NCBI GenBank assembly: GCA_052168235.1
Contig: JBQLZK010000028.1
Coordinates: forward strand, 1-64,000
From: Thainema sp.
GTDB taxonomy: Bacteria > Cyanobacteriota > Cyanobacteriia > Phormidesmidales > Phormidesmidaceae
Length of the DNA stretch: 64,000 bases
Direction: 5' to 3'
Below the pieces are notes generated by a model. It was not told the DNA's origin, searched no databases, and was given only the letters and a program-made list of their open reading frames with translations. Position 1 is the first letter of the stretch. Every line of letters begins with the position of its first letter. This document shows positions 44,888 through 58,969 of the stretch, in pieces. The position numbers were made by a program, and so were the translations under genes.

Positions 44888-47563
44888 ATGAAGGTCAACA
44901 CTATCGACGATCTCAATGCCCTGGTTGCTCAAGTCAAAGCGGCGCAGGCGCAATATGCCAACTTTACTCAGAACCAAGTTGATCAAATCTTCAAGCGGGC
45001 GGCGCTCAAAGCGAATGATGCTCGTATCGCTCTGGCCAAACTGGCTGTCGCTGAAACTCAGATGGGCATCGTGGAGGACAAGGTGATCAAGAATCACTTT
45101 GCGTCTGAGTACATCTACAACAAATACAAGAACGAGAAAACTTGTGGAGCCATCGAAACGGATAACACCTACGGCTTCCAGAAAATTGCTGAACCAATTG
45201 GGGTTCTAGCAGGAATCATCCCGGTGACGAATCCCACCTCGACGACGATTTTCAAGGCATTACTGGCGCTGAAAACCCGCAACGCAATTATTTTTTCGCC
45301 CCATCCCCGCGCCAAGGGCTGTACGGCGGAAGCTGCTCGCATCGTGCTCGAAGCGGCAGTAGAAGCGGGTGCGCCGGAGCATATTATCGCCTGGATGGAT
45401 GATCCGACGATTGAGCTGTCCCAGGCGCTGATGCAGCATCCGGAAGTGAAGCTGATTCTGGCGACGGGCGGCCCCGGCATGGTGAAAGCAGCTTATTCTT
45501 CAGGCCACCCGGCTTTAGGCGTCGGGGCGGGCAACACGCCAGCGGTGATTGACGAAACGGCGCACCTGAAGATGGCGGTGTCGTCGATTCTGCTCAGCAA
45601 AACCTTTGACCACGGCATGATCTGCGCCTCGGAGCAGTCCATCGTCGTCGTCGATGAAATTTACGATGAAGTGAAACAGGAACTGTGCGATCGCGGCGCT
45701 TATATCTTGACTACCGATGAAAAAGAAAAGGTAGGCCAGCAGATTATCGTCAACGGACGGTTAAATGCCGGAATTGTGGGTCAATCGGTATCTGGTATTG
45801 CAGATTTAGCGGGAATTACGATTCCGGATCACGTCAAGGTGCTGGTGGGCGAAGTCGATGCAATTGACCACGACGAACCCTTTGCCTACGAAAAGCTATC
45901 GCCGATCCTGGCCATGTACCGAGCCAAGTCCTTTGATGATGCGGTCAGCAAGGCGCAAAAGCTGGTGGATTTGGGCGGTCGGGGCCACACGTCGGTGCTC
46001 TATACCGCGCCCGCTAATCAGCAGCGGATTGAGAAGTTTGAGCAGGCGGTGCAGACGGCACGGGTGCTAATCAATACGCCGTCTTCGCAAGGAGCAATTG
46101 GCGACCTGTATAACTTCCGACTCGATCCCTCGCTCACCCTGGGCTGCGGCACCTGGGGCGGCAACTCCGTCAGCGAAAACGTGGGGCCAAAGCACCTGCT
46201 CAATATCAAGAGCGTGTCCGAGCGGCGAGAAAACATGCTGTGGTTCCGCATTCCGCCCAAGATTTACTTCAAGTACGGCTGCTTACCCGTGGCACTGCGG
46301 GATCTGGCGGGCAAACAGCGGGCGCTGATCGTGACCGACAAACCGCTCTATGAGCTAGGCATGACTCGCACCGTGGAAGCCGTGCTGGACGACATCGGCA
46401 TCAAATACGACATCTTCTACGATGTCGAACCCGATCCCTCGCTCGATACCGTGAATCGGGGACTGGCGCTGATGAATCGCTTCAATCCCGATGTGATTAT
46501 TGCTTTTGGCGGCGGGTCGCCGATGGATGCGGCCAAGGTGATGTGGCTGATGTATGAACAGCCGGACATCGAATTTGAAGGGATGGCCATGCGGTTTATG
46601 GATATCCGCAAGCGGGTGTATGAGTTCCCGACGACGCTGGGCGCAAAAGCTACGCTGGTCTGCATTCCCACTACCTCTGGCACGGGTTCCGAGGTGACGC
46701 CGTTTGCCGTTGTGACCGACAACCGGACGGGGATCAAGTATCCCATTGCCGACTATGCGCTGACGCCCCACATGGCGATCGTTGATCCCCAGTTGGTGAT
46801 GAACATGCCCAAGTCGCTGACGGCCTTTGGCGGCATTGATGCGCTGACTCATGCGCTGGAAGCCTACGTGTCGGTCTGTGCCTCGGAATTCACGAATGGG
46901 CAAGCCCTGGAAGCGATTCGCCTGCTGTTCAAATATCTGCCCAGTGCCTACAAAAACGGAGCCAACGATCCGAAGGCGCGGGAGAAGGTTCACTATGCCG
47001 CGACGATGGCGGGGATGGCCTTTGCCAACGGCTTCCTAGGTATCTGCCACTCGCTGGCCCACAAGCTGGGTTCCACGTTCCACATTCCCCACGGCTTGGC
47101 CAATGCGCTGATGATTTCGCACGTCATCCGCTACAACGCCACCGATGCGCCGTTTAAGCAGGCCATCTTCCCGCAGTACAAGTATCCCAATGCCAAGTGG
47201 CGCTACGCCCGGATTGCCGATTACCTGCAGCTCGGCGGAGCCGACGAGGATGAAAAAGTGGATCGCTTAATCGCCGCCATTGAGCAGCTTAAGGCTGCTG
47301 TTGACATTCCCACCGCCATCCGCGATGTGATTCCGGCTAAGACAGCAGACTTTTACCAGATGGTGCAGGATATGGCCGAGCAAGCCTTTGACGACCAATG
47401 CACGGGCACCAATCCCCGCTATCCGCTGATTGAAGACCTGAAGCAGTTATATATTCAAGCCTTTGAAGGAGAACGCCCCGTGGCCGTGATCGATCTGAAT
47501 CAGGTGCTGCAGTTGAGCAATGGTCACGCCTCAGACTGGACGCATGAGGAGGTCAAGATTTAG
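44888..47563 (+). CDS. adhE: Bifunctional acetaldehyde-CoA/alcohol dehydrogenase
   Basis: ICASEQ, EKLSP, LGCGTWGGNS linker, GGGSPMD, GICHSLAHKLG. Confidence 0.95.
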   Translation: MKVNTIDDLNALVAQVKAAQAQYANFTQNQVDQIFKRAALKANDARIALAKLAVAETQMGIVEDKVIKNHFASEYIYNKYKNEKTCGAIETDNTYGFQKIAEPIGVLAGIIPVTNPTSTTIFKALLALKTRNAIIFSPHPRAKGCTAEAARIVLEAAVEAGAPEHIIAWMDDPTIELSQALMQHPEVKLILATGGPGMVKAAYSSGHPALGVGAGNTPAVIDETAHLKMAVSSILLSKTFDHGMICASEQSIVVVDEIYDEVKQELCDRGAYILTTDEKEKVGQQIIVNGRLNAGIVGQSVSGIADLAGITIPDHVKVLVGEVDAIDHDEPFAYEKLSPILAMYRAKSFDDAVSKAQKLVDLGGRGHTSVLYTAPANQQRIEKFEQAVQTARVLINTPSSQGAIGDLYNFRLDPSLTLGCGTWGGNSVSENVGPKHLLNIKSVSERRENMLWFRIPPKIYFKYGCLPVALRDLAGKQRALIVTDKPLYELGMTRTVEAVLDDIGIKYDIFYDVEPDPSLDTVNRGLALMNRFNPDVIIAFGGGSPMDAAKVMWLMYEQPDIEFEGMAMRFMDIRKRVYEFPTTLGAKATLVCIPTTSGTGSEVTPFAVVTDNRTGIKYPIADYALTPHMAIVDPQLVMNMPKSLTAFGGIDALTHALEAYVSVCASEFTNGQALEAIRLLFKYLPSAYKNGANDPKAREKVHYAATMAGMAFANGFLGICHSLAHKLGSTFHIPHGLANALMISHVIRYNATDAPFKQAIFPQYKYPNAKWRYARIADYLQLGGADEDEKVDRLIAAIEQLKAAVDIPTAIRDVIPAKTADFYQMVQDMAEQAFDDQCTGTNPRYPLIEDLKQLYIQAFEGERPVAVIDLNQVLQLSNGHASDWTHEEVKI

Positions 47564-47599
47564 GCAAGTTGCGGTGGAAGATGCGATCGCACTCTGTCA

Positions 47600-47675
47600 A
47601 TGAGTCAATGCCGATGAGTCAATGCCGATGAGTCAATGCCGATGAGTCAATGCGGGTGGGCACTGCCCACCCTAC
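47600..47675. repeat. 14-bp tandem repeat (ATGAGTCAATGCCG) x3.9 followed by a REP palindrome
   Basis: Directly visible; gggtgggca-c-tgcccaccctac at 47654-47675. Confidence 0.85.
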
Positions 47676-47755
47676 CCGAAAACGGTCCAATACAAGGTTG
47701 GCAAACACGGTGAACATCTACATGCCCCACACTGAATATCGTTTGGGAGGACTGC

Positions 47756-48775
47756 ATGATGTATAGACATGTCATCATTACCCAGCACGGTGGCTCCGAG
47801 GTTTTGCAGCTAGTTGAAGATGAGTTGCCGGAACCCGCCGCTGATCAAGTCCGGGTGCGAGTGTTGGCGACCGGAGCGGCCTTCACGGATGTGCTGATTC
47901 GGGAGGGACTGTATCCCGGTGTGCCCAAACCGCCATTTTCACCCGGATATGAAGTGGTTGGCCTGGTGGATCAGGTTGGGGCGAACGTAACCAATGTGCA
48001 GCCAGGGCAGCGGGTTGCGGCTCTCACTGTCACGGGTGGCTACAGCGAGTTTATCTGCTTGCCAGCCGAGGAACTGGTGCCCGTCCCCGACGGCGTAGAC
48101 TCTGCCGAAGTAGCCTGTTTAGTGTTGCAATATGTGACGGCGTATCAACTCCTGCATCGGGTGGCGCACGTGCAGCCAGGGCAGCGGCTGCTGATTCACG
48201 GGGCGGCGGGCGGTGTCGGGACGGCGCTACTTGAACTCGGCCAGTCGTTGAACCTAGAGATGTACGGCACGGCGTCGGCTGGCAAGCACGACTTGGTGCG
48301 GCAACTGGGCGGCACTCCCATTGACTATCGCCACGAGGACTTTTGCGATCGCATTCGTGAACTGACGACCGACGGGGTTGATGTCGTGTTCGACGGCATT
48401 GGCGGCACGCATTTACTGGCCTCACACCGAGCCTTGGCACCTAAAGGGCAACTCGTTTGCTACGGCTTTTCAGCAGCATTGAAATCCACCCAGCGCTGGC
48501 GCTCACTGGCGACCACGTTTGCGCTGATTGCAGGGCTGAAGCTTTGGCCCGATGGTCGCCAGCTCTCGTTTTACAGCATCACGGGCATGAAACAGGCGCA
48601 TCCTGACTGGTTCAAAGCCGATCTGACCACTTTGATGGATGAGCTGAAAGCGGGCACCATCCGCCCGATTATTGCCCAGCGCTTGCCGCTACAGGAGGCA
48701 CCCGCCGCCCATCGGCTGCTGGAGCAGTCTGCCGTTCAGGGACAACTGGTGCTGATGTGCGATCGCAATCTCTAA
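47756..48775 (+). CDS. Medium-chain dehydrogenase/reductase (quinone oxidoreductase-like)
   Basis: PGYEVVG, HGAAGGVG, DVVFDGIGG; no Zn cysteine cluster. Confidence 0.85.
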   Translation: MMYRHVIITQHGGSEVLQLVEDELPEPAADQVRVRVLATGAAFTDVLIREGLYPGVPKPPFSPGYEVVGLVDQVGANVTNVQPGQRVAALTVTGGYSEFICLPAEELVPVPDGVDSAEVACLVLQYVTAYQLLHRVAHVQPGQRLLIHGAAGGVGTALLELGQSLNLEMYGTASAGKHDLVRQLGGTPIDYRHEDFCDRIRELTTDGVDVVFDGIGGTHLLASHRALAPKGQLVCYGFSAALKSTQRWRSLATTFALIAGLKLWPDGRQLSFYSITGMKQAHPDWFKADLTTLMDELKAGTIRPIIAQRLPLQEAPAAHRLLEQSAVQGQLVLMCDRNL

Positions 48776-48797
48776 TTAACGTTCGAGGGGAAATGGT

Positions 48798-49514
48798 ATG
48801 GCAGTTAAAACACTCAAAATTGACGATCAGGATATTGCGATCGCAGAAGGCGCGTCTATCCTGGAGGCCGCCAAAGAAGCGGGCGTACGGATTCCAACTC
48901 TGTGCTTTTTGGAAGGGGTCAGCTCCGTGGGAGCCTGCCGTCTCTGCCTGGTGGAAATCGAAGGCAGCAATAAACTTTTGCCCGCCTGCGTCACCGAAGT
49001 GGCCGAAGGCATGGTGGTGCATACCCAAACGCCCAAGCTGCAAGAGTATCGCCGCATGGCCGTGGAGCTGATTTTTGCCGAGGGCAATCACGTCTGCTCA
49101 ATCTGCGTGGCCAACGGCAACTGCGAACTGCAAGATGTCGCCATCGAAGTCGGCATGGATCACTCCCGCTTTGCCTATCGCTTCCCGGATCGGGGCGTGG
49201 ACTTGTCTCACGACCTGTTTGGCATTGATCACAACCGCTGCATCCTCTGCACCCGCTGCGTCCGCGTCTGCGACGAGATTGAGGGGGCACACGTTTGGGA
49301 TGTGGCCAATCGGGGCGCGGCTTGCTATATCGTCTCCGGTCTGAATCAGCCCTGGGGCGATGTCAGCGCCTGCACCTCCTGCGGCAAATGCGTCGATGCC
49401 TGCCCCACCGGATCGATTTTCCACAAGGGCGAAACCACAGGCGAAAAAATCCGCGATCGCGACAAGTTCGCTTTCCTATCTACCGCACGGGAGAAACACG
49501 AATGGACAAGATAA
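48798..49514 (+). CDS. hoxU: Bidirectional hydrogenase subunit U
   Basis: IPTLC, GACRLC, HVCSIC, CILCTRC, CTSCGKC. Confidence 0.95.
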   Translation: MAVKTLKIDDQDIAIAEGASILEAAKEAGVRIPTLCFLEGVSSVGACRLCLVEIEGSNKLLPACVTEVAEGMVVHTQTPKLQEYRRMAVELIFAEGNHVCSICVANGNCELQDVAIEVGMDHSRFAYRFPDRGVDLSHDLFGIDHNRCILCTRCVRVCDEIEGAHVWDVANRGAACYIVSGLNQPWGDVSACTSCGKCVDACPTGSIFHKGETTGEKIRDRDKFAFLSTAREKHEWTR

Positions 49515-50053
49515 AGTTTGCCACGGTTTGGCTAGCGGGCTGTTCCGGTTGCCACATGTCATTTCTCGATCTGGATGAGTTTCTGATTGAGCTGGCGGGT
49601 TTAGTAGACGTGGTCTACAGTCCGGTCGCCTCGGATCTGAAAGACTATCCCGACGGCGTGGATGTTTGCCTGGTGGAAGGCGCAGTAGCCAACGAAGAAA
49701 ACCTGGAGCTGATTTACCAAGTGCGCCGCCGCACCAAACTGCTGATTTCCTTTGGTGACTGCGCGGTGACGGCTAACGTGCCCGCCATGCGGAACCTGCT
49801 GCGGGAGGGAGCCAAGCCCGTCCTGGAGCGTGGCTATTTGGAACTGGCGGACGAAAATCCCCATTTACCCCACGCACCAGGCATCGTGCCGGAACTGCTA
49901 GATCGCGTTTTGCCAGTGCATGAAGTGGTGCCCATTGATATTTTCATGCCCGGTTGTCCACCCTCAGCAGATCGGATTCGCGCCACGTTGGAGCCGCTGC
50001 TCCAGGGGCAGGCACCGGAAATGGTAGGCCGCGACATGATCAAATTTGGTTAA
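49502..50053 (+). CDS. hoxY: Bidirectional hydrogenase small subunit
   Basis: LAGCSGCHMS, GDCA, PGCPP. Confidence 0.95.
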   Translation: MDKIKFATVWLAGCSGCHMSFLDLDEFLIELAGLVDVVYSPVASDLKDYPDGVDVCLVEGAVANEENLELIYQVRRRTKLLISFGDCAVTANVPAMRNLLREGAKPVLERGYLELADENPHLPHAPGIVPELLDRVLPVHEVVPIDIFMPGCPPSADRIRATLEPLLQGQAPEMVGRDMIKFG

Positions 50054-50106
50054 TTTAGTTAATTTAATGATTTCACTTGACTGGGAGAAGCAAAGGAGAA
50101 TTGGCC

Positions 50107-50340
50107 ATGAGCGTTGACAGTACAAAATTCCAAGCCGAACTCGATTCTGCGATCGCAGAAGCCCATCGCATCCAGGCCGAAAAAGGAGCGGACTCACCGG
50201 AATGTGCCGCCGCCTGGGATGCCGTTGAAGAAATGCGGGCTGAGGTATCGCACCAGCATCAAGCGTCGCCAACGTCTAATTTCCAAAAATATGTAGACGA
50301 GCATCCCGATGCGCCGGAAGCTCGCATGTACGACGACTGA
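50107..50340 (+). CDS. cp12: CP12 variant with a single cysteine
   Basis: AAAWDAVEE core, YVDEHPDAPEARMYDD C-terminus; AAGGAG RBS. Confidence 0.85.
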   Translation: MSVDSTKFQAELDSAIAEAHRIQAEKGADSPECAAAWDAVEEMRAEVSHQHQASPTSNFQKYVDEHPDAPEARMYDD

Positions 50341-50415
50341 ACCGCGACTCACCGATCTATCTATGCTCACAAGCCATACCCCGTGTTTGACCAGGGGTGA
50401 AGGGAGGTTTACGAA

Positions 50416-51843
50416 ATGTCTAAAACGGTTGTGATTGATCCCGTCACTCGGATTGAGGGTCACGCCAAGATCTCCGTCTTTCTCAACGATGCCGGAGAGG
50501 TCGATAAAGCACAGTTTCACGTGGTGGAATATCGGGGATTCGAGAAGTTTTGCGAAGGCCGCCCCTTCACCGAAATGGCCGGAATTACGGCGCGCATCTG
50601 CGGCATTTGTCCCGTAAGCCACCTGATTTGCGCTGCCAAAACGGGCGATAAAATCCTGGCGGTGAAAGTGCCAGTGGCGGCAGACAAACTGCGGCGCTTG
50701 ATGAACTTGGCCCAAATTACCCAATCCCATGCGCTCTCGTTTTTCCACTTGAGCAGTCCCGATTTTCTACTCGGCTGGGATAGCGATCCGGCCAAGCGCA
50801 ATGTGTTTGGACTAATCGCCGCTGATCCAGAGCTGGCTAGAGCGGGCATTCGCCTGCGTCAGTTCGGTCAAAAAATTATCGAAATTCTGGGTGGGCGCAA
50901 GATTCACGCCGCTTGGACTGTCCCCGGTGGAGTGCGATCGCCGCTGAGTGAAGAGGGTCGCGCTTGGATTGTCGATCGGCTACCGGAATCCCTCGATACC
51001 GTCCGTAAAGCCCTGGATATCTTCAAGGGGCTAATCAACGGCCCGATGCAGGAAGAAGTGAACGTGTTTGGCGAATTCCCGTCGCTATTCATGAGTCTGG
51101 TTGGTAAAGATGGCGAATGGGAGCATTACGACGGCTATCTGCGCTTTACCGACAGCAACGGCAATATCGTTGCCGATCACCTGAGCGAGGACGACTACCA
51201 GGACTTCCTGGGTGAAGCGGTGGAAGACTGGTCATACCTGAAATTCCCCTATTACAAGCCCCTGGGCTATCCCGGCGGCATCTATCGGGTGGGGCCACTG
51301 GCGCGGTTGAACAACTGTAGCCACATTGGCACGCCCAGCGCCAATGCTGAACTGCAAGCCTTCCGGGAATATGCGGGCGGCGTGCCTACCTCGTCGTTCC
51401 TCTACCACTATGCGCGGCTAATTGAAATTCTGGCCTGTCTCGAAAAAATTCAGGTGCTGATGGACGATCCGGATATGATGTCCAGCCGAGTCCGCTCCGA
51501 AGCGGGCGTGAACTCCCTGGTCGGCATCGGCGTCAGCGAAGCACCGCGCGGCACCCTGTTCCATCACTATCAGGTGGATGAAAATGGCCTAATCAAAAAG
51601 GTCAACCTGATTATTGCCACGGGGCACAACAATCTGGCCATGAACAAAACCGTCACCCAGATTGCCCAGCACTACATCCACGGCGAAGACATTCCCGAAG
51701 GCTTCCTGAACCGAGTCGAAGCAGGCATCCGCTGTTATGATCCCTGCCTCTCCTGCTCCACCCATGCGGTGGGCCAAATGCCGCTGCACATTCAGCTGGT
51801 GAAGCCGGACGGTTCCGTCGCGAAAGAGGTGTATCGGGATTAA
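50416..51843 (+). CDS. hoxH: Bidirectional [NiFe] hydrogenase large subunit
   Basis: [30 protein letters not shown] plus cleavable extension. Confidence 0.97.
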
Positions 51844-51940: not shown

Positions 51941-52213
51941 ATGGCCAAAGAAAACTTATTTCTCTGTATGGGATCGGCCTGCCATCAACTGGGTGTCTAC
52001 GACGTGCTGCCCAAACTGCAAGCTCTAATCCAAAAGCACGGTCTTGAACAGGAGATTGAGCTGAAGGGATCATTCTGCCTGGAAACCTGTAGCCAAGGCA
52101 TCGTCATGAAGTTCCACGACACCTGCTTTTCCAACATCAGCCCTCAAAATGTCGAATCCAAATTCGAAGCCGAAATTCTGCCGAAAATTCAGTCAGCTCT
52201 GTCGGCAGTTTAG
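51941..52213 (+). CDS. Thioredoxin-like [2Fe-2S] ferredoxin (HfsA-like)
   Basis: CMGSACH..G and ELKGSFCLETC motifs; GGAGG RBS. Confidence 0.8.
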   Translation: MAKENLFLCMGSACHQLGVYDVLPKLQALIQKHGLEQEIELKGSFCLETCSQGIVMKFHDTCFSNISPQNVESKFEAEILPKIQSALSAV

Positions 52214-52218
52214 GTCAA

Positions 52219-52250
52219 GCGTAGGGGCGAATGGCCATTCGCCCCTACGC
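52219..52250. repeat. Perfect 32-bp GTAG REP palindrome
   Basis: gcgtaggggcgaatgg|ccattcgcccctacgc. Confidence 0.85.
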
Positions 52251-52290
52251 AATTTAACGCTCCCAGTCCCCATTCTCAGCTTGTTGCACC

Positions 52291-52851
52291 ATGCTGATCC
52301 CTACCGTGACTGCTAACGTACCCAATCACCTCTGGCAAATCCTCTGGGAATACGACCCCAATGGTCTAATCGTGGTCGATGCCGATTTGTATATCAAGCT
52401 GGTGAATCCGGCCTTTTGTGAGATGTTTGGCATCAAGCCGGACGATGCCATCGGCCAGCCAGCGGAAACGATTTTAGACGATGTCAGCGACTTTAAGCGG
52501 GTGTGGGAAACGGGCACGGTGATTCGCAATCAGCTCAAGCAGTATACGCAGCCGCCGCTGTTGCTCAACCAGGTGATTTTCTCCATTGAGGATGAGGGCA
52601 TCATTGCCTGCATCATGACCGACTTCAGCCATCAGCTAGCGCAAAAGCAGGCGCTCACCAAGCTGAAGCACGAGACGATTAAGCAGGTGAACGAAGTGGT
52701 CGATCACCAAATGAAAGTGGTGCAGGAAATCGCCGGACTGCTGGGCGAAACGACTGCCGAAACCAAAGTCAGCCTGCTGAAAATTATTCAGATGCTACAG
52801 CAGGAAGCGAGCGATTCTTTGCCGTTGTTGAATCCCGATGAGCAGCCGTGA
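52291..52851 (+). CDS. PAS-domain protein resembling the C-terminus of sensory [FeFe] hydrogenase HfsB/HydS
   Basis: PNGLIVVD..VNPAF..F PAS start; QMKVVQEIAGLLGETTAETKVSL tail. Confidence 0.8.
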   Translation: MLIPTVTANVPNHLWQILWEYDPNGLIVVDADLYIKLVNPAFCEMFGIKPDDAIGQPAETILDDVSDFKRVWETGTVIRNQLKQYTQPPLLLNQVIFSIEDEGIIACIMTDFSHQLAQKQALTKLKHETIKQVNEVVDHQMKVVQEIAGLLGETTAETKVSLLKIIQMLQQEASDSLPLLNPDEQP

Positions 52852-54091
52852 CATGGAACAGATTTTGTCTTCAACGCGGACTGATGTGGATGCCACCGTT
52901 CGTTCTTCGCCTCTGATTGCTGTGATGGAAGCCGACAATTTTCTCGATATTGCAGTCAGCAGTTTGAATAAGCAGGGCGAGGAATTGTGCGGTGACAAGG
53001 TGAAGTATCTGAAAACCGATGATCAGGTGATTATCGTCCTGTCAGACGGTTTGGGCAGCGGCGTGAAGGCAAATATTTTGGCCACGCTCACCACTGAAAT
53101 TCTGATCACGATGCTGAATGCGGATGTGCCGCTGGAAGAAGTCCTGAAGACAGTAATTGCGACGCTGCCGATCTGCCAGGTGCGGAAGATTGCCTACTCC
53201 ACGTTCACGATTTTGCGGATCAATCCGGCCAATAACCACTTCCGCGTGATTAATTTTGACAATCCGGCTCCGTTCTATTTCCACCAGGGTAAGGCCGTCA
53301 AGCTAGAGCTGAAAACGCAGGAAATCCTCGGTCGCAAAATTCAAATTGGTGAAGGCTATCTGCAACGGGGCGATTTTCTGGGCGCGATTAGTGACGGGGT
53401 ACTCTATGCCGGGATGGGCATTACGCTGAATTTTGGCTGGGGCTGGGAGAATATCGCGAGTCACATTGAGCAGGTGTTGGTGAATCGCGCTCACACGGCT
53501 CGCACCATTATTCGCGAGGTGATTCGGCATACCCATGAGCTGTATCAAGGCGCAACCGGGGATGATGCCACGTTTGTTGGGGTGTATGTTCGCCAACGCA
53601 ATCCGCTGCTGATTTTTACGGGGCCACCGCTGGATGCGGAGCAGGATGAAGCCTACGTCAGCCGCTTTCTGGAATTTGAAGGGCGCAAGGTGATTTGCGG
53701 CGGTACGACTGGCAACATCGTGGCAAATTTCCTGGGCGAAATGATTGACATGGATCTGTCCACCATGCGGCGGGAACTGCCACCCATTGGCATGTTGAGC
53801 TGCGTAGATCTGGTCACGGAAGGGATTTTGACGCTCTCGAAGGCTACCGAGTATATCCGCAACTGTCACTGCGATGTCAGCCAGCTCCAGTTTGACAATA
53901 ACGGTGCTTACTTGCTCAGCAAAGAGATTTTGCAGGCGGATTCGATTCACTTTCTGGTTGGCCAAAGCATCAACGAGTTCTATCAAAATCCGCTGCTGCC
54001 CAAGAACATCTCAATTCGGCGCAGTCTCGTTGAAACATTGGTAGACGTGCTGAGGGCGGGGCAGAAGGAGGTGATGGTGGAGTATTGCTAG
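52838..54091 (+). CDS. SpoIIE/PP2C-type Ser/Thr phosphatase (HfsC-like); start may be 52925
   Basis: LNKQGEELCGD, SDGLGSGVKANILATLT, SDGV, GDDAT, ICGGTT, DLVTEGILTL. Confidence 0.85.
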   Translation: MSSRDMEQILSSTRTDVDATVRSSPLIAVMEADNFLDIAVSSLNKQGEELCGDKVKYLKTDDQVIIVLSDGLGSGVKANILATLTTEILITMLNADVPLEEVLKTVIATLPICQVRKIAYSTFTILRINPANNHFRVINFDNPAPFYFHQGKAVKLELKTQEILGRKIQIGEGYLQRGDFLGAISDGVLYAGMGITLNFGWGWENIASHIEQVLVNRAHTARTIIREVIRHTHELYQGATGDDATFVGVYVRQRNPLLIFTGPPLDAEQDEAYVSRFLEFEGRKVICGGTTGNIVANFLGEMIDMDLSTMRRELPPIGMLSCVDLVTEGILTLSKATEYIRNCHCDVSQLQFDNNGAYLLSKEILQADSIHFLVGQSINEFYQNPLLPKNISIRRSLVETLVDVLRAGQKEVMVEYC

Positions 54092-54240
54092 GGGGGAGTA
54101 GGGGAGAGAGGGTGGATGGGTGGATGGGTGGATGGGTGGATGAGTGGATGGGTAAGGAGTAGGGAGTAGGGAGTAGGTGAGAAAGGGGGTGGGAGTGGGG
54201 ATGGGTGTTGGTTGCGATGTAGGGAGTAAGGGGGGGAAGG
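54092..54240. repeat. G-rich short tandem repeats (GGATGGGT)n and (GGGAGTA)n
   Basis: Directly visible; reverse complement of the 2361-2433 unit. Confidence 0.85.
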
Positions 54241-54242
54241 AG

Positions 54243-54722
54243 ATGGTGGGGATGTTGGTGGTTGGGTATGGCAATACGTTGCGGGGGGATGATGCGGTGG
54301 GGTATGAGATTGCGGAGGTGGTGCAGGATTGGGGGTTGGCTGGTGTGGAGGCGGTAGCTTGCCATCAGTTGACGCCGGAATTGGCAGATGCGATCGCAAC
54401 TTTCCAATCCATTATTTTCGTAGATGCTGCGATCGCATCTGTCACCACCTCATCGGATATCACGCTGGAGCGGGTGGAACCGAGTGAGCAAAATCCGTTT
54501 ACGACCCATGCGTCTACGCCAGCGGCGTTGCTGACCTTAGCGAAGTGGCTCTATGACGCGACCCCTGTTGCCTATCAGCTGACGATTCCAGCGATTGAGT
54601 TTGAGTTTACGGAAAGCCTGTCGCCTGTGACGGCTGAGGGCAAACGGCTGGCGCTGATGCAGTTACGCCGCATGTGTGAAGACACGCCATCCTCTGCAAT
54701 GGGAGGCTACGCGAATGCATGA
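54243..54722 (+). CDS. hoxW: Hydrogenase maturation protease
   Basis: VGYGNTLRGDDAVG, HQLTPEL, FVDA, TH..TP. Confidence 0.9.
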   Translation: MVGMLVVGYGNTLRGDDAVGYEIAEVVQDWGLAGVEAVACHQLTPELADAIATFQSIIFVDAAIASVTTSSDITLERVEPSEQNPFTTHASTPAALLTLAKWLYDATPVAYQLTIPAIEFEFTESLSPVTAEGKRLALMQLRRMCEDTPSSAMGGYANA

Positions 54723-55056
54723 AGTGAGCATCATGGAAAGCACGCTGGAACTGGCGGAGCAGTCGGCCCAGCAGCAGGGCGCAACGCGGATTCACCAGTT
54801 GACGCTGCGGGTGGGTGAGCTGTCGGGAGTGATTCCGGAGGCGCTGCGGTTTGCCTTTGATGTGGTGGCCCAGGGCACGATGGCGGCAGCGGCCAAGTTA
54901 ACCATTGAATCGGTGCCTGCGGTGTGTCATTGCCCCGTTTGCGATCGCGACTTTCAGCCACCGGACATCATCTATGAATGTCCCCACTGCCACGGGCTAG
55001 CGACGGAACTGCGGCAGGGCAAAGAACTAGAACTTGTATCGTTGGAGGTGTCTTAA
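54715..55056 (+). CDS. hypA: Hydrogenase nickel metallochaperone
   Basis: MHE start, CPVC/CPHC, GKELEL. Confidence 0.95.
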
Positions 55057-55057
55057 G

Positions 55058-56005
55058 ATGTGTCAGAACTGCGGCTGTAGCCAAGTTGGCGCGGTGACGA
55101 TTGACGGCATAGAAATGCCCGCGCATTCACATGAGGATACGCATGGTCACGCCCACGATCACATGCATGATCATCCTCATATCCATTCACCCTCCCACTC
55201 TCCTACCCTCCCACCCGATCACCCATCTACCCATCCACCCATCCACCCTCATACTCACCCACCCGATCACAACCATTCCCACACGCTAACAGTGCATCAG
55301 GGAATTCTGAGCAAAAATGATCGTTTAGCTGCCCAAAATCGCGAATCTTTTAAAGCGGCGGGTGTGTTGGTACTCAACGTTCTCTCCTCCCCAGGAGCCG
55401 GAAAAACGGCGCTTATTGAACGCTTAGCTCAAGATTTAGCCGCGCAAACGCCTCAAGATGGGCCGCAGTCTCTCAAAATGGGCGTTGTTGTGGGCGATTT
55501 AGCGACGGACAATGATGCTCAGCGGTTACGGCAGGCGGGTGCGCCAGCGGTGCAGATCACGACGGGTAATGCCTGTCATCTAGAAGCGGAAATGGTAGCG
55601 CAGTCGCTAACCCGATTAGACCAGTGGCCGGAGTTCGATCTGCTGGTAATTGAAAATGTGGGTAATCTGGTGTGCCCGACCAGCTATGACCTGGGCGAAA
55701 CGCTGCGGGTGGTGTTGCTGTCTACGACCGAGGGAGAAGATAAGCCGCTGAAGTATCCGGCCACGTTTAAGAGTGCGGATGTGGTGTTGTTGACGAAGGT
55801 GGATATTGCCGAAGCCGTGGGTTGCGATCGCACTTTAGCTCTCTCAAATATTCAACGAGTTGCACCACAGGCCAAAGTGTTTGAAGTCTCAGCCCGAACG
55901 GGGGCAGGGTTGTCGGATTGGTATGAGTATTTGGTGGGTCAGCTTGTGCTGCTGGAAAACAAACCAGTAGGGTGCTGTATAGCCCTTCGGGCATGGCTGC
56001 GCTAA
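55058..56005 (+). CDS. hypB: Hydrogenase nickel incorporation GTPase
   Basis: MCQNCGC, His-rich segment, [27 protein letters not shown]. Confidence 0.95.
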
Positions 56006-56022
56006 AGCGAAGCGTAACGCAC
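55967..56022. repeat. 56-bp composite REP-like element overlapping the hypB 3' end
   Basis: 50/56 identical to 25144-25199. Confidence 0.8.
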
Positions 56023-56195
56023 CGTTCATGGATTTACCTTGATGTAGTTGAGGTGTGGGAAAAAACCCGTTTGTGGTGGTGCTTGCCCCCACGCCCCCGC
56101 TGGAGGACGAGTCGCTTCCCCCAGACCCCCTCCGAAAAAATAACCTGTTGGGTTAGTTAAACGTTAAGGAACGTGGATTGAATTAATCCGCAACT

Positions 56196-56261
56196 GTAGG
56201 GGCAGGTTTAGCAGACCAATTTGCATCTTGTAATCGATTTGACGGCGAAACCTGCCCCTAC
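56196..56261. repeat. GTAG-type REP-like element
   Basis: gtaggggcaggttt...aaacctgcccctac. Confidence 0.75.
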
Positions 56262-56290
56262 GAGATGTCGAATTTAATTCACAATCCCAA

Positions 56291-58969
56291 ATGAAGGGTG
56301 TGGTTATGGTTGCAGTACCTTATCCCAAATCGAATATCCCTCAGCGTTTGAGTCTCCATGTGGAGGGGATTGTGCAGGGTGTGGGCTTTCGGCCTTTTGT
56401 GTATACGCTGGCGCGGTCGGTGGGGGTGACAGGTTGGGTGCAGAATACGGCGCAGGGTGTGTTTATTGAAATTGAAGGAACGGCGGCGCAACTGCAATCG
56501 TTTCAGCAGCGGTTGGAGGCCGAGAAACCGGAACATGCGTTGCTTCAGCGAGTGGAGGTAACGCAGTTAGAGAGTATGGGCGATCAGGACTTTCGTATCC
56601 TCCCGTCTTCTCAAACAGCGGCGAAAACGGCTTTAATTCTGCCCGATCTGGCCACCTGTCCTACCTGTCTCGCAGAAATGTGGGAGCCGACGAATCGCCG
56701 CTATCGCTATCCGTTTATCAACTGCACCCACTGCGGCCCCCGGTTCAGCATTGTGCGATCGCTACCCTATGATCGACCGCATACGACAATGGCAGGATTT
56801 CCGCTTTGTCCTGACTGTCGGCGAGAGTATGAAGACCCCTGCGATCGCAGATTTCACGCGCAGCCCAATGCTTGCTCAACCTGCGGCCCGCATGTGGAAC
56901 TGTGGGATCGAGAAGGTAACTGTTTAGAGCAATCTGATCCAGCGCTTCGGCAGGCAGCAGTGGCACTTGAACAGGGGCAAGTCCTGGCGCTGAAGGGACT
57001 GGGCGGATTTCATCTGATGGTGGATGCCACTAACGAAGCGGCGGTGCAAACGCTGCGGCAGCGGAAGCATCGACCGGATAAGCCGTTAGCGGTGATATTT
57101 CCGTCGTTGGCGATGCTGCGCGATTACTGTGAGGTATCCGATGCCGCCGTGCAGGTGATGCAATCGGCGGCGGCTCCGATTGTGCTGTTGCCGTTGCGCA
57201 CGGATGGCGTAATGCTTGCGCCTGGGGTAGCTCCGGGCAATCCCTCTATCGGCGCGATGTTGCCCTATACGCCGCTGCATCATTTGCTGCTGGCGGAGGT
57301 GAATCGCCCCATTGTGGCGACGAGCGGTAATTTATCCGGTGAACCAATTTGTATTGATGAGCGGGACGCTCTGGAGCGCCTGGGCCAGATTGCCGATAGC
57401 TTTCTAGTGCACAATCGCCCGATTGCCCGTCCGGTGGACGATTCCATTGTGCAGATGGTGCAGGATCAGCCCGTGACGCTGCGACGAGCCAGGGGCTATG
57501 CGCCATTTCCGGTAATGCCGCCTGTGCTCTCATCCCCAGCTCTTCTTCCTCAGGGAGAAGGGAGCAATTCTCCGGAAGTCCCTCTCCCACGGGGAGAGGG
57601 ATTTAGGGTGAGGGCCACAAACGCCGAACGACAACAAGATGTAGTTATGCTGGACGTTCCGCTTCCTGACGATACGAAGACTTTGGGTTCTAGTTCGGCG
57701 TTGAGATCCCCCCTAGCCCCCCTTAAAAAGGGGGGAATTGGTTCAAAGTTCCCCCTTTTTAAGGGGGATTTAGGGGGATCGGTTTGGGGTGTTGAAAAAC
57801 AATTGCAAGATGCCGTTATTTTGTCCGTTGGTAGTCACCTGAAAAATACCGTCGCCCTACATTTACATGGTCAAACGTTGATTAGTCAGCATTTAGGCGA
57901 TTTAGATACGCCGCAAGGGTGCGATCGCTTTAAAGAAACAATTCAGCATCTCTGTGGTTTGTACGATTTGCAGCCCACGGATGTAGATGCGATCGCACAT
58001 GACGCTCACCCGGATTACTACTCGACCCAGTTTGCTAAGGCGTTGCTCAGCCAAACCGATAAGTCCCCGCAACTCATACCTGTCCAGCATCACTACGCTC
58101 ATGTCCTGTCCTGCATGGTCGATAACCAGTGGCAGCCGCCTGTGTTGGGCGTTGCCTGGGACGGCACGGGCTATGGGCTAGACGGCACAATTTGGGGAGG
58201 TGAGCTGCTGTGGATTCCGTCCGCTCACGTGCCCGCACCGGGATTTGAGCGGGTGGGGCACGTAAAGCCGTTTCCGCTGCCGGGGAGTGAACGGGCGACG
58301 GTGGAGCCGCGCCGATCGGCGATTGGATTACTCTACAGTTGCCTGGGCGATCGCGCGTTTGACTATACGCATCTGCCCTGCTTCCAGACGTTTACCGCTC
58401 AAGAGCAGACGGTGCTGCACCAAATGCTCCAGCGGGGCTTAAATGCGCCGCTCACGTCCAGCATGGGACGGCTGTTTGATGCCGTTGCCTCGCTGGTAGG
58501 ACTCCGCCAGCAGGCCAGTTTTGAGGGACAGGCGGCGATGGCGCTGGAATTTGCGATCGCACATCCCACAGACCAACTCACAGATCAGATCTATCCCTAT
58601 GCGCTGCATCACTTGCCGGATTCCTCGCTTCAGTTTGATCCAAAGCCAATGGTGCTGGCGATTTTGGATGACTTGGCGAATCAAGAGTTAACGGCGGACA
58701 TTGCGATAACATTTCACAATACTTTAATTGCCGCATTAGTGGAAATCATTCAGCATTTATGTAAGCGGTATCCAGAACTACAGAAAGTCGCTCTTACGGG
58801 TGGATGTTTTCAAAATCGCTATTTGTTGAACCGCGCCATTCAGCAGCTCCAGGCCATAAATCTATCGGTTGGTTGGCATCAAACCATTCCCACCAATGAC
58901 GGCGGCATTTCGGCTGGGCAAACAATGGCAGCACTGATTGAGTTAAACAATCAGTTAGTTGTCAAATAG
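56291..58969 (+). CDS. hypF: Carbamoyltransferase with an in-frame repeat-derived insertion
   Basis: GIVQGVGFRP, CTHCGPR, KGLGGFH, RRARGY, QHHYAH, DGTGYG, NDGGISAGQ. Confidence 0.95.
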   Translation: MKGVVMVAVPYPKSNIPQRLSLHVEGIVQGVGFRPFVYTLARSVGVTGWVQNTAQGVFIEIEGTAAQLQSFQQRLEAEKPEHALLQRVEVTQLESMGDQDFRILPSSQTAAKTALILPDLATCPTCLAEMWEPTNRRYRYPFINCTHCGPRFSIVRSLPYDRPHTTMAGFPLCPDCRREYEDPCDRRFHAQPNACSTCGPHVELWDREGNCLEQSDPALRQAAVALEQGQVLALKGLGGFHLMVDATNEAAVQTLRQRKHRPDKPLAVIFPSLAMLRDYCEVSDAAVQVMQSAAAPIVLLPLRTDGVMLAPGVAPGNPSIGAMLPYTPLHHLLLAEVNRPIVATSGNLSGEPICIDERDALERLGQIADSFLVHNRPIARPVDDSIVQMVQDQPVTLRRARGYAPFPVMPPVLSSPALLPQGEGSNSPEVPLPRGEGFRVRATNAERQQDVVMLDVPLPDDTKTLGSSSALRSPLAPLKKGGIGSKFPLFKGDLGGSVWGVEKQLQDAVILSVGSHLKNTVALHLHGQTLISQHLGDLDTPQGCDRFKETIQHLCGLYDLQPTDVDAIAHDAHPDYYSTQFAKALLSQTDKSPQLIPVQHHYAHVLSCMVDNQWQPPVLGVAWDGTGYGLDGTIWGGELLWIPSAHVPAPGFERVGHVKPFPLPGSERATVEPRRSAIGLLYSCLGDRAFDYTHLPCFQTFTAQEQTVLHQMLQRGLNAPLTSSMGRLFDAVASLVGLRQQASFEGQAAMALEFAIAHPTDQLTDQIYPYALHHLPDSSLQFDPKPMVLAILDDLANQELTADIAITFHNTLIAALVEIIQHLCKRYPELQKVALTGGCFQNRYLLNRAIQQLQAINLSVGWHQTIPTNDGGISAGQTMAALIELNNQLVVK
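57526..57615. repeat. Dispersed palindromic element in frame within hypF
   Basis: gctctcatccccagctcttctt...ccctctcccacggggagagggatttagggtgagggc. Confidence 0.75.
57705..57780. repeat. Second dispersed palindromic element within hypF
   Basis: gatcccccctagccccccttaaaaagggggg...ccccctttttaagggggatttagggggatc. Confidence 0.8.

Follow-up and report, generated by a model that had tools for sequence, protein, structure and literature searches.

Judged from alignments, a free-standing protein of 186 aa encoded in the hox gene cluster of the 64-kb stretch of cyanobacterial DNA that we analysed (the window) is homologous over its full length to the C-terminal PAS domain and tail of PAS-bearing [FeFe] hydrogenases. 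We refer to it as the PAS-tail protein. Together with a ferredoxin gene on its 5' side and a phosphatase gene on its 3' side it forms a module that we regard as a variant of the HydS and HfsB system, itself known but not well understood. The explanation we prefer, with a probability of about 0.6, is that the PAS-tail protein is a free-standing form of the signalling end of putative H2-sensing group C [FeFe] hydrogenases and controls the neighbouring phosphatase, which in turn tunes fermentation. The features of the window on which the argument draws are listed below.

42377..51843, forward strand: upstream context, hoxE, hoxF, adhE, Zn-ADH, hoxU, hoxY, CP12 and hoxH (Pfam)
51941..52213, forward strand: thioredoxin-like [2Fe-2S] ferredoxin of 90 aa in the HfsA position (cysteine pattern; PF01257 below cutoff)
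52214..52290, no strand: spacer of 77 bp between the ferredoxin and PAS-tail ORFs
52219..52250, no strand: perfect palindrome of 32 nt (16+16) in the spacer (inverted repeat, 100% complementary)
52291..52851, forward strand: PAS-tail gene, 186 aa, with N-cap helix, PAS core, long helix, loop and second helix (ORF list; PAS_9)
52324..52353, forward strand: N-cap helix with the stand-alone signature L14 W15 ... W19. Y21, or LW..W.Y (conservation over 81 rows)
52708..52776, forward strand: hairpin tip, residues 140-162, QMKVVQEIAGLLGETTAETKVSL, pattern QM.V.QEIAGLLGETTAETK..L (alignments of 16 sequences and 81 rows)
52838..54091, forward strand: SpoIIE/PP2C-family phosphatase with a 160-aa C-terminal alpha/beta domain (PF07228; AF2)
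54177..63542, forward strand: downstream context, hoxW, hypA, hypB, hypF and PFOR (nifJ) (Pfam, except hoxW)

The PAS-tail protein and its neighbours

PAS_9 matched residues 23-111 of the 186-aa protein (E 1.7e-8, 35.1 bits against a cutoff of 27), PAS_4, PAS_8 and PAS also exceeded their own cutoffs, and Pfam returned no domain other than PAS. An AF2 model with a pLDDT of 86.6 overall and above 90 in the PAS core, which has five strands plus helices, matched PAS/LOV structures in Foldseek with a probability of 1.00. With a profile above cutoff and a PAS fold, the protein belongs to the PAS domain superfamily. The model places a helix at residues 12-21, PAS strands up to residue 111, a long helix at 113-150, a loop at 151-154 and a second helix at 155-175, the last with a pLDDT of just 59-77. 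No solved structure covers the tail, as PDB matches of the PAS-tail profile stop at about profile position 126, and an Atlas search with the tail alone gave scores below 0.9 and unnamed clusters only.

The original prediction described the ORF as a PAS domain and a helix with neither FeS nor H-cluster motifs, and both the Pfam search and a check of the cysteines agree with it. PF02906, PF04060 and Fer4 found no match in the protein, and the only cysteines, C43 and C107, lie outside the conserved columns of the alignments. The protein thus has neither the H-cluster-binding H-domain (PF02906) of group C hydrogenases nor the N-terminal two-[4Fe-4S] domain and C-terminal Cx2Cx4Cx16C cluster (PF04060), which the available text of one source counts among the defining parts of group C (PMC8163306). 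No Cys or His was found among the invariant or near-invariant columns of the PAS core, which places it outside the LOV and heme-binding classes, with their flavin-adduct Cys motif and heme-ligating His. The tail had no HisKA match in Pfam and does not class with histidine-kinase DHp domains; relatives have K, N or R in place of its sole His, H139.

The ferredoxin has its cysteines in the arrangement C9-x4-C14-x31-C46-x3-C50 (Cx4Cx31Cx3C) and matched PF01257 weakly (E 6e-4, below cutoff), as it did NuoE/HoxE-type NCBIfam models, also below cutoff. The gap of 77 bp originally reported between ferredoxin and PAS gene was confirmed at 52214-52290. Its palindrome, which had been called a REP element, is real and perfect, and as RNA it folds as a hairpin (z -3.4), but the repetitive label does not fit a sequence with a single copy in the window when up to three mismatches are allowed. 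It has no T-run and was not called a terminator. A search for promoters and terminators from 51700 to 54300 gave nothing above shuffled expectation, and the only Rfam match in the window was a tRNA at 8998-9070.

The phosphatase ORF starts at 52838 in its longest form or at 52925 in a form of 388 aa, the length typical of the family, and the latter is likely the true start. Its match to the SpoIIE profile PF07228 (E 2e-19, 70.6 bits) assigns the predicted product to the SpoIIE/PP2C phosphatase family. The nearest solved relative is RsbX by sequence and SpoIIE by profile, and the AF2 model has a pLDDT of 91.2. Of its acidic positions, D24 and D214 do not vary across 61 sequences, and conservation reaches at least 90% at D41, D157 and D213; we take D24, D41, D157 and D213/D214 to be the metal-binding positions. 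The C-terminal domain shared no Pfam family among more than four of the 61 members at E values up to 10, a PDB profile search gave one match at chance level (the SIS protein 3trj, E 0.88), all Atlas matches were unnamed clusters about 150 aa long, and Foldseek with the whole model listed PP2C matches only. Nor was a PAS domain fused to this domain found among the best 120 of 899 relatives. An invariant CGGTTG junction between strand and helix could, speculatively, mark the domain as STAS-like or as a phosphate loop. Further downstream, hoxW has no Pfam match and was assigned from its position and from phmmer matches to the gene that follows the phosphatase in 18 cyanobacterial loci.

Relatives, gene order and lineages

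A search for relatives of the PAS-tail protein retrieved 1241 of near its own length and 1771 longer ones. The best 120 of the longer relatives all carry PF02906 and PF04060 and align at 34-43% identity over 80-100% of the query (E 1e-29 to 8e-21). Among 150 cluster representatives, 129 cover both PAS and tail; these comprise 33 stand-alone proteins, 34 with a partial extension at the N-terminus and 62 as long as a hydrogenase. In the alignment the window protein starts right behind the fourth Cys of the Cx2Cx4Cx16C motif of its fused relatives. We assign those relatives to group C because of their domain architecture and operon order; the PAS-bearing architecture is termed group C or M2f in the literature available to us. 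The claim that the tail aligns with the C-termini of sensory hydrogenases is upheld for these fused relatives, none of which is an experimentally characterised HydS or HfsB, with a tail core invariant in 16/16 sequences. On these alignments, the 186-aa protein appears to contain the group C-type C-terminal PAS domain and tail.

To examine gene order we sampled 80 loci: 27 cyanobacterial, 22 other stand-alone and 31 fused. By phmmer, a ferredoxin gene lies directly 5' of the PAS-tail or HydS gene in all 27 cyanobacterial loci, 10/22 other stand-alone loci and 19/31 fused loci. The phosphatase gene follows on the 3' side in every cyanobacterial locus with room for it (25/25) and adjoins the PAS-tail gene in 19/22 other stand-alone and 28/31 fused loci, for an overall count of 72 of the 74 loci with room, plus one fragment. 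Stop and start codons of the module genes commonly overlap by 1 or 4 nt. The order of an hfsABC-type operon, with an HfsA-like ferredoxin, the sensor and an HfsC-like Ser phosphatase, is kept in the window, in 27/27 cyanobacterial loci and in most fused loci. Chance falls far short of explaining either the E-values or the synteny. As the pair of PAS-tail protein and phosphatase is common to almost all loci, the proposal that it is a minimal signalling unit is a fair comparative inference. Ferredoxin is absent near 12 of the 22 non-cyanobacterial stand-alone loci and is therefore not a universal input.

In cyanobacteria the triad sits mostly between hoxH and hoxW; hoxH is present in 23/27 loci and an [FeFe] gene in 0/27, and the accessible text of a phylum-wide survey reports no [FeFe] hydrogenase homologs in cyanobacteria (PMC5186783). 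The gene adhE occurs in the hox cluster of the window and in six of the sampled loci (L003, L005, L007, L046, L068 and L079). An all-against-all clustering of ORFs over the 80 loci found Rex as a recurrent neighbour in 18 non-cyanobacterial loci; clusters of ABC transporters, two-component proteins and antisense shadow ORFs recurred as well.

The position of the module between hoxH and the hoxW/hyp maturation genes, and the resemblance of its ferredoxin to NuoE/HoxE, would also suit a set of accessory, maturation or electron-transfer factors for NuoEF-type hydrogenases with no role in signalling. We regard this as very improbable, since a PAS domain and a PP2C that conserves its catalytic acidic positions belong to signalling and the hfs genetics, as far as the available text goes, indicate regulation (PMC5707799). 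Moreover, hoxW is described as lying directly 3' of hoxH in many Hox-bearing cyanobacteria (PMC3858816) and as flanked by unrelated genes in Nostoc PCC 7120 (PMC2670836). The ORFs between hoxH and hoxW of Nostoc PCC 7120 were considered as the same module and rejected, as hoxW is there flanked by genes for acetyl-CoA synthetase and 4-hydroxyphenylpyruvate dioxygenase, according to the same partly available source.

Cyanobacteria are not alone in having the short form. At least seven further named phyla, Chloroflexota, Armatimonadota and Planctomycetota among them, have it as well, and stand-alone genes there several times adjoin [FeFe] HydABC genes. A short ORF that aligns only with the C-terminus of longer proteins might be a decaying hydrogenase remnant or an annotation artefact. 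To this we give practically no credence, since dN/dS was 0.03-0.2 in the 40 listed of 57 cyanobacterial pairs with dS<1.5, the form is kept across cyanobacterial families and other phyla with an N-terminal motif of its own, and the PAS model is confident (AF2). The expectation that cyanobacterial homologs share the short form under purifying selection was thus borne out by the 27 loci and the 40 listed pairs, and a strain-specific fragment in decay, which would have spoken against the prediction, is ruled out.

The N-terminal motif is LW..W.Y. Conservation at its positions is 86-100% among 28 cyanobacterial rows (one for each of the 27 loci and one for the window) and 82-91% among the 22 other stand-alone rows; in the 31 fused rows no residue exceeds 45% there. 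In a PAS-tail tree (quick search, unrooted) the split of fused from stand-alone proteins has an SH-aLRT support of 99 and cyanobacteria form one group with 92, and a phosphatase tree repeats both splits with supports of 1.0 and 0.957. The matching splits of the two trees show co-diversification of PAS-tail protein and phosphatase. Locus L071 lacks the LW..W.Y signature, and its short form is likely one separate truncation. The main stand-alone clade could equally be ancestral or have arisen by truncation.

These data bear on a further explanation, that the PAS domain, in line with the original prediction, binds a small molecule or cofactor directly and has its output to something other than the phosphatase, such as the Hox enzyme or a transcription factor. 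Ligand binding is frequent among PAS domains, short stand-alone PAS proteins form a known class, and two loci have no adjacent phosphatase; in the Anaerolineae loci L029 and L030 the PAS-tail gene has neither partner within 10 kb. However, the PAS core has no conserved Cys or His and no LOV- or heme-type residues, and the phosphatase adjoins and co-diversifies with the PAS-tail protein as described above, so we find direct ligand sensing of this kind quite improbable.

The conserved tip of the tail

The hairpin tip is conserved across all three groups of the 81-row alignment. In the alignment of 16 sequences (seven cyanobacterial and nine fused), Q140, M141, V143, Q145-A156, T158, K159 and L162 are invariant. 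Over 99 instances of the motif, residue 158 is always T or S, and residue 159 is K in 98. The original prediction of a conserved Thr-rich tail stands as regards this near-invariant tip and the Thr/Ser at position 158, but not as regards the first two threonines of the tail, T154 and T155, which differ among clusters. The tail showed no measurable covariation with the phosphatase because it is too invariant.

The conserved Thr/Ser beside a near-invariant K159 raises the question of whether the tail is itself the substrate of the phosphatase, with a distant Ser/Thr kinase phosphorylating position 158 and the PP2C reversing it, such that the PAS-tail protein would be a phospho-switch like a partner-switching antagonist. 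The modelled tip is an exposed loop followed by the N-terminus of a helix (AF2), and RsbX, the closest solved relative of the phosphatase by sequence, dephosphorylates small regulatory proteins. For R. albus, the available text of a previous study relates a proposal by which the PAS signal reaches an adjacent Ser/Thr kinase (PMC5707799). However, no conserved kinase, STAS protein or obvious phosphatase substrate was found near the module in the 80 loci, and the hox cluster of the window has no kinase; nor was there a STAS antagonist or GHKL anti-sigma kinase among the 49 non-overlapping window ORFs with a length of 90 aa or more. T154 and T155 vary, and at least 15 consecutive invariant residues fit an interface better than a single phosphosite. 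We therefore consider it unlikely that the tail serves as a phosphatase substrate.

We favor the reading in which the tail acts on the phosphatase. The PAS-tail protein would dimerise via the N-cap helix and the long helix, as short PAS/LOV proteins do. Its PAS domain may receive a redox- or H2-linked input, most likely through contact with the neighbouring ferredoxin or a NuoE/NuoF-type hydrogenase complex, given that the protein itself lacks a cofactor motif. The near-invariant tip (QEIAGLLGETTAETK) would then dock on the cognate phosphatase and toggle it on or off, thereby doing in trans what in RsbP-type PP2C phosphatases the PAS and coiled-coil region does in cis. The phosphatase, in turn, would alter the phosphorylation of a target protein that tunes the fermentative electron sinks (hox, adhE and nifJ).

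Known systems and implications for cyanobacterial fermentation

The closest comparison is with the group C (M2f) protein HydS of Thermotoga maritima and Ruminococcus albus and with HfsB of Thermoanaerobacterium (hfsABCD), to whose PAS domain and tail the module's appear homologous. Both kinds of operon have a small [2Fe-2S] ferredoxin on the 5' side and a SpoIIE-type Ser phosphatase on the 3' side, and both are tied to NuoE/NuoF-type hydrogenases and adhE, as the loci described above and the accessible parts of two studies indicate (PMC5707799; PMC6776011). The two studies state that deletion of hfsA or hfsB raises adhE expression and that hfsC and hfsD are needed for a high ethanol yield (PMC5707799), and that in R. 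albus HydS, the phosphatase, HydA2 and AdhE are encoded in one cluster whose expression tracks the H2 level (PMC6776011). In contrast to HydS and HfsB, the PAS-tail protein has no N-terminal [4Fe-4S] domain, H-domain or Cx2Cx4Cx16C cluster domain, its lineage has the N-cap motif LW..W.Y, and the cyanobacterial module is embedded in a [NiFe] hox operon.

The neighbouring enzyme shares its SpoIIE family (PF07228) with the partner-switching PP2Cs RsbP, RsbU and SpoIIE. RsbP carries a PAS domain and a helical linker on its PP2C, and the logic we propose, a PAS domain and helices controlling a PP2C, is alike. Here, however, these parts are on a separate polypeptide, and the phosphatase has an uncharacterised C-terminal domain in place of an N-terminal regulatory one. 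As neither a STAS protein nor an anti-sigma kinase was found among the conserved neighbours in the 80 loci or the 49 scanned ORFs of the window, the module does not belong to canonical partner switching.

The top fold matches of the PAS-tail model in Foldseek (E about 4e-7, TM about 0.5-0.7) were short LOV proteins and LOV-histidine-kinase chimeras. Like PpSB1-LOV, PF5-LOV, MrLOVe and the chimera YF1, it consists of a PAS core between an N-cap helix and a long helix at the C-terminal end, with no enzymatic effector attached. Unlike them, at an identity of 15-19%, it has no flavin-binding LOV signature (by inspection of the sequence), and its tail turns back on itself to form a hairpin whose tip is conserved. 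A likeness in concept exists to HoxBC-HoxJ-HoxA of Cupriavidus (Ralstonia), a hydrogenase-linked PAS module with phosphorylation-based control of hydrogenase genes, as outlined in the available text (PMC5707799; PMC8163306). No sequence homology was found between the two, and the Cupriavidus system relies on a histidine kinase together with a dedicated sensor [NiFe] hydrogenase, whereas the present one has a PP2C phosphatase and no dedicated sensor enzyme.

It is possible, if rather doubtful, that the PAS-tail/PP2C pair is a portable cassette able to read any NAD(P)H- or ferredoxin-linked (NuoE/NuoF-type) hydrogenase, whether [FeFe] or [NiFe], by docking on the hydrogenase or on a satellite ferredoxin. 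If so, the cyanobacterial Hox enzyme would double as an H2 or redox sensor, dark fermentation in cyanobacteria (hox, adhE and nifJ) would be under an unrecognised phosphorylation-based control, and the more basic part of HydS would be a redox-signalling core to which the H-domain is an addition.

In the main texts of open-access papers we found neither a free-standing PAS protein of the HydS type described for the hox clusters of cyanobacteria nor a pairing of PAS with SpoIIE there. The available part of a 2026 review on redox signalling in cyanobacteria (PMC13421787) names RpaA and CyAbrB1/2 as hox regulators, and a text search of that part found no occurrence of 'SpoIIE' or 'PP2C'. The module is suggestive of a regulator of the bidirectional hydrogenase of cyanobacteria that has so far not been listed and, by its place in a [NiFe] hydrogenase operon, of an undescribed circuit that controls fermentation and hydrogen metabolism. 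Its stand-alone form (PAS, tail, phosphatase and often ferredoxin) isolates the output side of the putative sensory [FeFe] hydrogenase pathway, and makes that side available as small soluble proteins from oxygen-tolerant cyanobacteria instead of strict anaerobes. Because deletion of hfsB in thermophilic anaerobes raises ethanol yield, a module beside adhE and hox is also of practical interest for the production of hydrogen and ethanol.

Gene content of the hydrogen and fermentation cluster

A cyanobacterial gene cluster for hydrogen metabolism and fermentation lies on the plus strand of the window; within it, an ORF for a 186-aa protein with a PAS domain and a conserved tail (the PAS-tail protein) is found between a ferredoxin gene and a phosphatase gene.

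Genes of the cluster (window coordinates, strand, product)
start 42377, plus, hoxE (Pfam)
start 43062, plus, hoxF
44849-47563, plus, adhE (bifunctional aldehyde/alcohol dehydrogenase, 904 aa)
start 47756, plus, Zn-dependent dehydrogenase
start 48798, plus, hoxU
start 49505, plus, hoxY
50077-50340, plus, CP12 gene, 87 aa (PF02672, E 1e-23)
50416-51843, plus, hoxH
51941-52213, plus, ferredoxin gene, 90 aa
52291-52851, plus, PAS-tail ORF, 186 aa
52838 or 52925 to 54091, plus, SpoIIE-family phosphatase gene
3' of the phosphatase gene, plus, hoxW, hypA, hypB and hypF, in that order
59727-63542, plus, pyruvate:ferredoxin oxidoreductase gene

The sole Pfam match of the PAS-tail protein is PAS_9 (residues 23-111, E 1.7e-8, over the cutoff); residues 140-162 read QMKVVQEIAGLLGETTAETKVSL, and neither of its two cysteines is conserved. 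A 77-bp spacer separates it from the ferredoxin gene and holds a perfect 32-nt palindrome (52219-52250) that folds well (z -3.4). This palindrome has no further copy in the window, even with 3 mismatches allowed, and therefore the original prediction, which described an ORF with only a PAS domain and tail behind a spacer containing a REP palindrome, is confirmed in every factual element except the term REP. The ferredoxin has the cysteine spacing of thioredoxin-like [2Fe-2S] proteins (Cx4Cx31Cx3C), and it matches profiles of NuoE/HoxE-type families only weakly, with scores under the cutoff.

Several other features of the window were recorded. The adhE and Zn-dependent dehydrogenase genes (44849-48775) separate hoxF from hoxU. 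A G-rich tandem repeat with an 8-nt period, resembling GGGTGGAT, occupies the interval from the phosphatase gene to hoxW (54089-54260); the reverse complement of this GGGTGGAT-like repeat (47 nt, 85% complementary) occurs inside hypB (55169-55264), where it encodes a His/Pro-rich N-terminal stretch. The octamer GCGATCGC, which we take to be the HIP1 palindrome typical of many cyanobacteria, is present in several copies around the module (51863, 54390, 54429 and 54941). Elsewhere, two DUF5615 ORFs (20400-20729 and 21806-22135) with equal Pfam scores (E 2.5e-34 each) lie 1.4 kb apart with a ParE-toxin ORF (21110-21406) between them, which looks like a duplicated toxin-antitoxin-like cassette.

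Relation to sensory [FeFe] hydrogenases

A search limited to longer proteins returned 1771 matches. Each of the 120 listed combines the large-subunit domain of [FeFe] hydrogenases (PF02906) with a PF04060 Fe-S domain, usually alongside PAS models; they are 420-650 aa long and 34-43% identical across 80-100% of the query (E 1e-29 to 8e-21), and the sources named among them are Bacillota and Armatimonadota. In these fused relatives, [4Fe-4S] motifs at the N-terminus are followed by an H-domain, a Cx2Cx4Cx16C cluster and a PAS domain, the layout by which the literature defines the M2f subclass of the group C "putative sensory" hydrogenases, including TmHydS (PMC8163306, PMC13104023). When 7 stand-alone proteins from cyanobacteria are aligned with 9 hydrogenases of the fused type, the window protein begins directly past the fourth Cys of the Cx2Cx4Cx16C motif, and Q140, M141, V143, Q145 through A156, T158, K159 and L162 are identical in 16/16 sequences. 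Because the tail core is shared in this way, the predicted homology to sensory hydrogenases stands. The PAS-tail protein is not itself a group C hydrogenase, because three defining features are missing; it is a homolog of the group C signalling module and very probably works in a similar way. Its putative relation to the named HydS/HfsB proteins draws on domain architecture and operon order. The fused system (HydS/HfsB plus phosphatase) has been recognised as a recurring genomic arrangement and through genetic work, but how it signals has yet to be established.

A search for proteins of similar length retrieved 1241 relatives. The top 120 are 157-242 aa long with 63-99% identity, and those named span cyanobacteria of many genera, among them Leptolyngbya, Phormidium, Cyanothece PCC 7425, Spirulina, Scytonema, Stanieria, Hydrococcus and Pleurocapsales. 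For 57 cyanobacterial gene pairs with unsaturated dS, dN/dS was 0.03-0.2 in the 40 listed, in keeping with purifying selection. An exhaustive search of representatives gave 1574 matches, and 129 of the 150 best cluster representatives span the full PAS-plus-tail profile (62 of hydrogenase length, 34 with a partial N-terminal extension and 33 stand-alone). Five partially extended representatives (54-204 residues before the match) were compared with Pfam: the PF04060 Fe-S domain is present in four, of which one also has part of the H-domain, and the fifth has PAS only. Other partially extended representatives may be contig-edge fragments.

From at least 566 relatives in a genome scan we kept 80 loci: 27 cyanobacterial, 22 stand-alone elsewhere and 31 fused (mostly Bacillota). 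Titles of the 22 name Chloroflexota/Anaerolineae, Armatimonadota, Omnitrophota, candidate division KSB3, Acidobacteriota, Desulfobacteraceae, Planctomycetota and Bacteriovoracaceae, so the stand-alone form is not confined to cyanobacteria. Gene decay, which would make the ORF a strain-specific fragment, is already refuted by relatives in many cyanobacterial genera and other phyla, and the description of the protein as a minimal unit holds. In Thermoanaerobacter thermocopriae JCM 7501 (locus L054, 3347-5087), the HydS-type gene is split into three ORFs of 83, 238 and 272 aa, either a frameshifted pseudogene or a sequencing error.

Operon context and the phosphatase partner

All ORFs of the 80 loci were searched by phmmer with the window's own proteins. 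In cyanobacteria the ferredoxin gene lies immediately 5' of the PAS-tail gene in 27/27 loci, and the phosphatase gene immediately 3' in 25/25 with enough contig (L011 and L013 end too early). hoxH is within the locus in 23/27; of the remaining loci, two are missing the sequence upstream (L008, L013), and in two the ferredoxin, PAS-tail and phosphatase triad stands beside adhE and/or hoxW-hyp genes (L007, L009). hoxW comes next in 18 cyanobacterial loci, and none of the 27 contains an [FeFe] hydrogenase gene. At the other stand-alone loci, the phosphatase gene adjoins in 19/22 (L043 has only a fragment; L029 and L030 have none) and the ferredoxin gene in 10/22; HydA-type [FeFe] genes occur in five, and NuoE/NuoF-like genes in those five plus three more. 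The orphan PAS-tail genes of L029 (5860-6390) and L030 (576-1091), both in Anaerolineae genomes, have no ferredoxin or phosphatase gene within 10 kb; neighbours in L029 encode a GNAT-domain protein, an AzlC protein, a dehydroquinase and an RCC1-repeat protein.

The phosphatase gene adjoins 28/31 fused genes, and lies 5.8 kb downstream in L057, while two contigs end too early; a ferredoxin gene is upstream in 19/31. A second [FeFe] hydrogenase, either of the trimeric HydABC type or monomeric and past the phosphatase, is present in 21/31. The monomeric enzymes 3' of the phosphatase in L069, L072 and L073 (303, 486 and 487 aa) reproduce the published hfsABCD order, in which hfsB encodes a PAS-bearing [FeFe] hydrogenase, hfsC a serine phosphatase and hfsD a hydrogenase linked to ferredoxin (PMC11837493). 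The PAS-tail/HydS stop and phosphatase start codons often overlap by 1 or 4 nt.

The sole additional conserved neighbour is a Rex-type redox-sensing repressor (PF06971 plus CoA_binding) in 18 non-cyanobacterial loci (L031, L034, L036, L039, L046, L048, L055, L059-L064, L066, L068, L070, L074 and L079); it was found in 0/27 cyanobacterial loci. The 87-aa CP12-domain gene, encoding a Calvin cycle redox-switch protein, sits in the hoxY-hoxH gap of the hox operon in the window, and L001 and L016 have a CP12-domain gene at the corresponding place. CP12-containing ORFs of 203-221 aa lie 3' of hoxW in six cyanobacterial loci (L003, L005, L017, L018, L025 and L026), and a staphylococcal-nuclease-like gene (PF00565) occupies the hoxY-hoxH gap of seven (L010, L014, L015, L017, L018, L025 and L026).

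Read as its longest ORF, the phosphatase gene begins at 52838, with its first 14 nt inside the PAS gene; a length of 388 aa, typical of the family, puts the start at 52925. In the structural model (pLDDT 91.2), a PP2C domain akin to those of SpoIIE and RsbX occupies residues 1-225; its expected acidic positions, presumably metal-binding sites, are at least 90% conserved. Residues 226-388 (window 53600-54088) fold as an alpha/beta domain in which GPP and CGG are invariant and the TT after CGG is nearly so; CGGTTG lies at a strand-helix junction. This domain matched no Pfam family or PDB sequence, only unnamed Atlas clusters. It is joined to SpoIIE in all 120 best of 899 relatives, and among cyanobacteria (74-100%) is more conserved than the PAS protein.

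A quick, unrooted maximum-likelihood tree of 81 PAS-tail regions separated the 31 fused proteins plus stand-alone L071 from 49 stand-alone proteins (SH-aLRT 99), with the 28 cyanobacterial rows as one group in the latter set (support 92). A FastTree analysis of 61 phosphatases likewise separated neighbours of fused from neighbours of stand-alone genes (support 1.0) and grouped the 19 cyanobacterial phosphatases (0.957). Because the partitions are equal, the two genes have travelled together. The stand-alone lineage has an N-cap helix signature (L14, W15, W19 and Y21) conserved at 86-100% in cyanobacterial and 82-91% in other stand-alone rows, and not conserved in fused proteins. L071 (Planctomycetaceae) lacks it and clusters with a fused protein, with a long-branch warning from the tree tool there; it looks like a separate, recent truncation. 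As the tree is unrooted, either the main stand-alone clade arose by truncation or the fused form by later fusion.

A proposed regulatory subunit

An AF2 model of the PAS-tail protein built from 56 sequences (mean pLDDT 86.6) has an N-cap helix (12-21), a PAS core to residue 111 (pLDDT mostly > 90), a 38-residue helix (113-150), a four-residue break (L151-T154) and a second helix (155-175; pLDDT 59-77). The invariant motif therefore runs from the end of helix 1 across the turn into helix 2, and is modelled as the tip of a helical hairpin. Among PDB structures, Foldseek matched the model to short LOV proteins and to LOV-histidine-kinase chimeras (E about 4e-7); these have a PAS core bearing N-cap and J-alpha helices and act as dimers. 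By sequence, no solved structure covering the tail was found. The tail has no conserved His, which rules it out as a DHp phospho-acceptor.

Conservation is higher at the tip than in the PAS core, both between phyla and between fused and stand-alone forms. Of 99 motif instances taken from cluster representatives, 61 contain the 10-mer LLGETTAETK unchanged; variation is seen at 154 and 155 (A, N, R, S, V), T or S occupies position 158 in 99/99, and K occupies 159 in 98/99. In the main rival explanation T/S158 is itself a phosphosite and the PAS-tail protein a phosphatase substrate, but this is unlikely, as no kinase is conserved: no kinase or STAS gene recurs near the module among the 80 loci. 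A eukaryotic-type Ser/Thr kinase gene with TPR repeats lies 3.4 kb 5' of hoxE (37062-38996); a tie to the phosphatase is unsupported, because such a kinase does not recur at the other loci. Direct ligand sensing by the PAS domain, as originally predicted, with another output appears quite improbable; the PAS core has no conserved Cys or His, and no cofactor motif was found within the protein. The phosphatase is the single partner almost always adjoining the PAS-tail gene. An accessory role without signalling is very improbable.

We favor, with a probability of roughly 0.6, a PAS-tail dimer that would act as a regulatory subunit of the adjoining phosphatase, with the tip as its docking surface. 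The PAS domain would receive its input through contact with another protein, either the satellite ferredoxin, at loci that have one, or the hydrogenase complex, and the phosphatase would dephosphorylate a protein that adjusts fermentative electron sinks. The regulatory-subunit model is offered to explain the conservation of the tip, the adjacency and co-diversification of the phosphatase, the dispensability of the H-domain and its Fe-S clusters, the lack of a cofactor motif, and the association with hydrogenases that share NuoE/NuoF-type subunits, whether the catalytic subunit is [FeFe] or [NiFe]. The proposed output agrees with genetics in anaerobes, where adhE expression rises when hfsA or hfsB is lost and hfsC and hfsD are required for high ethanol yield (PMC5707799), and where, in R. 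albus, the regulation of a cluster of HydS, phosphatase, HydA2 and AdhE follows the H2 level (PMC6776011). The reported R. albus HydS-AdhE linkage is echoed here: adhE is in or beside the module in the window, L003, L005 and L007 have it immediately 5' of the ferredoxin gene, and in L046, L068 and L079 it lies close to the module.

In the open literature, outside subscription journals and supplements, we found no description of a hydrogenase-less HydS-type form or of its presence in cyanobacterial hox operons. A phylum-wide survey identified no [FeFe] homologs in cyanobacteria, and searches of it for 'PAS', 'phosphatase' and 'ORF' gave nothing about extra genes in hox clusters (PMC5186783). 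A Lyngbya hox cluster comparison discusses additional ORFs and leaves the ferredoxin, PAS-tail and phosphatase unnamed (PMC3858816), and a 2026 review on redox signalling in cyanobacteria lists RpaA and CyAbrB1/2 as regulators of hox, with neither 'SpoIIE' nor 'PP2C' in its text (PMC13421787). A HydS output module inside the [NiFe] Hox operon of an oxygenic phototroph would surprise a specialist, and the stand-alone module provides a simple, soluble system in which to ask how HydS-type sensors signal.
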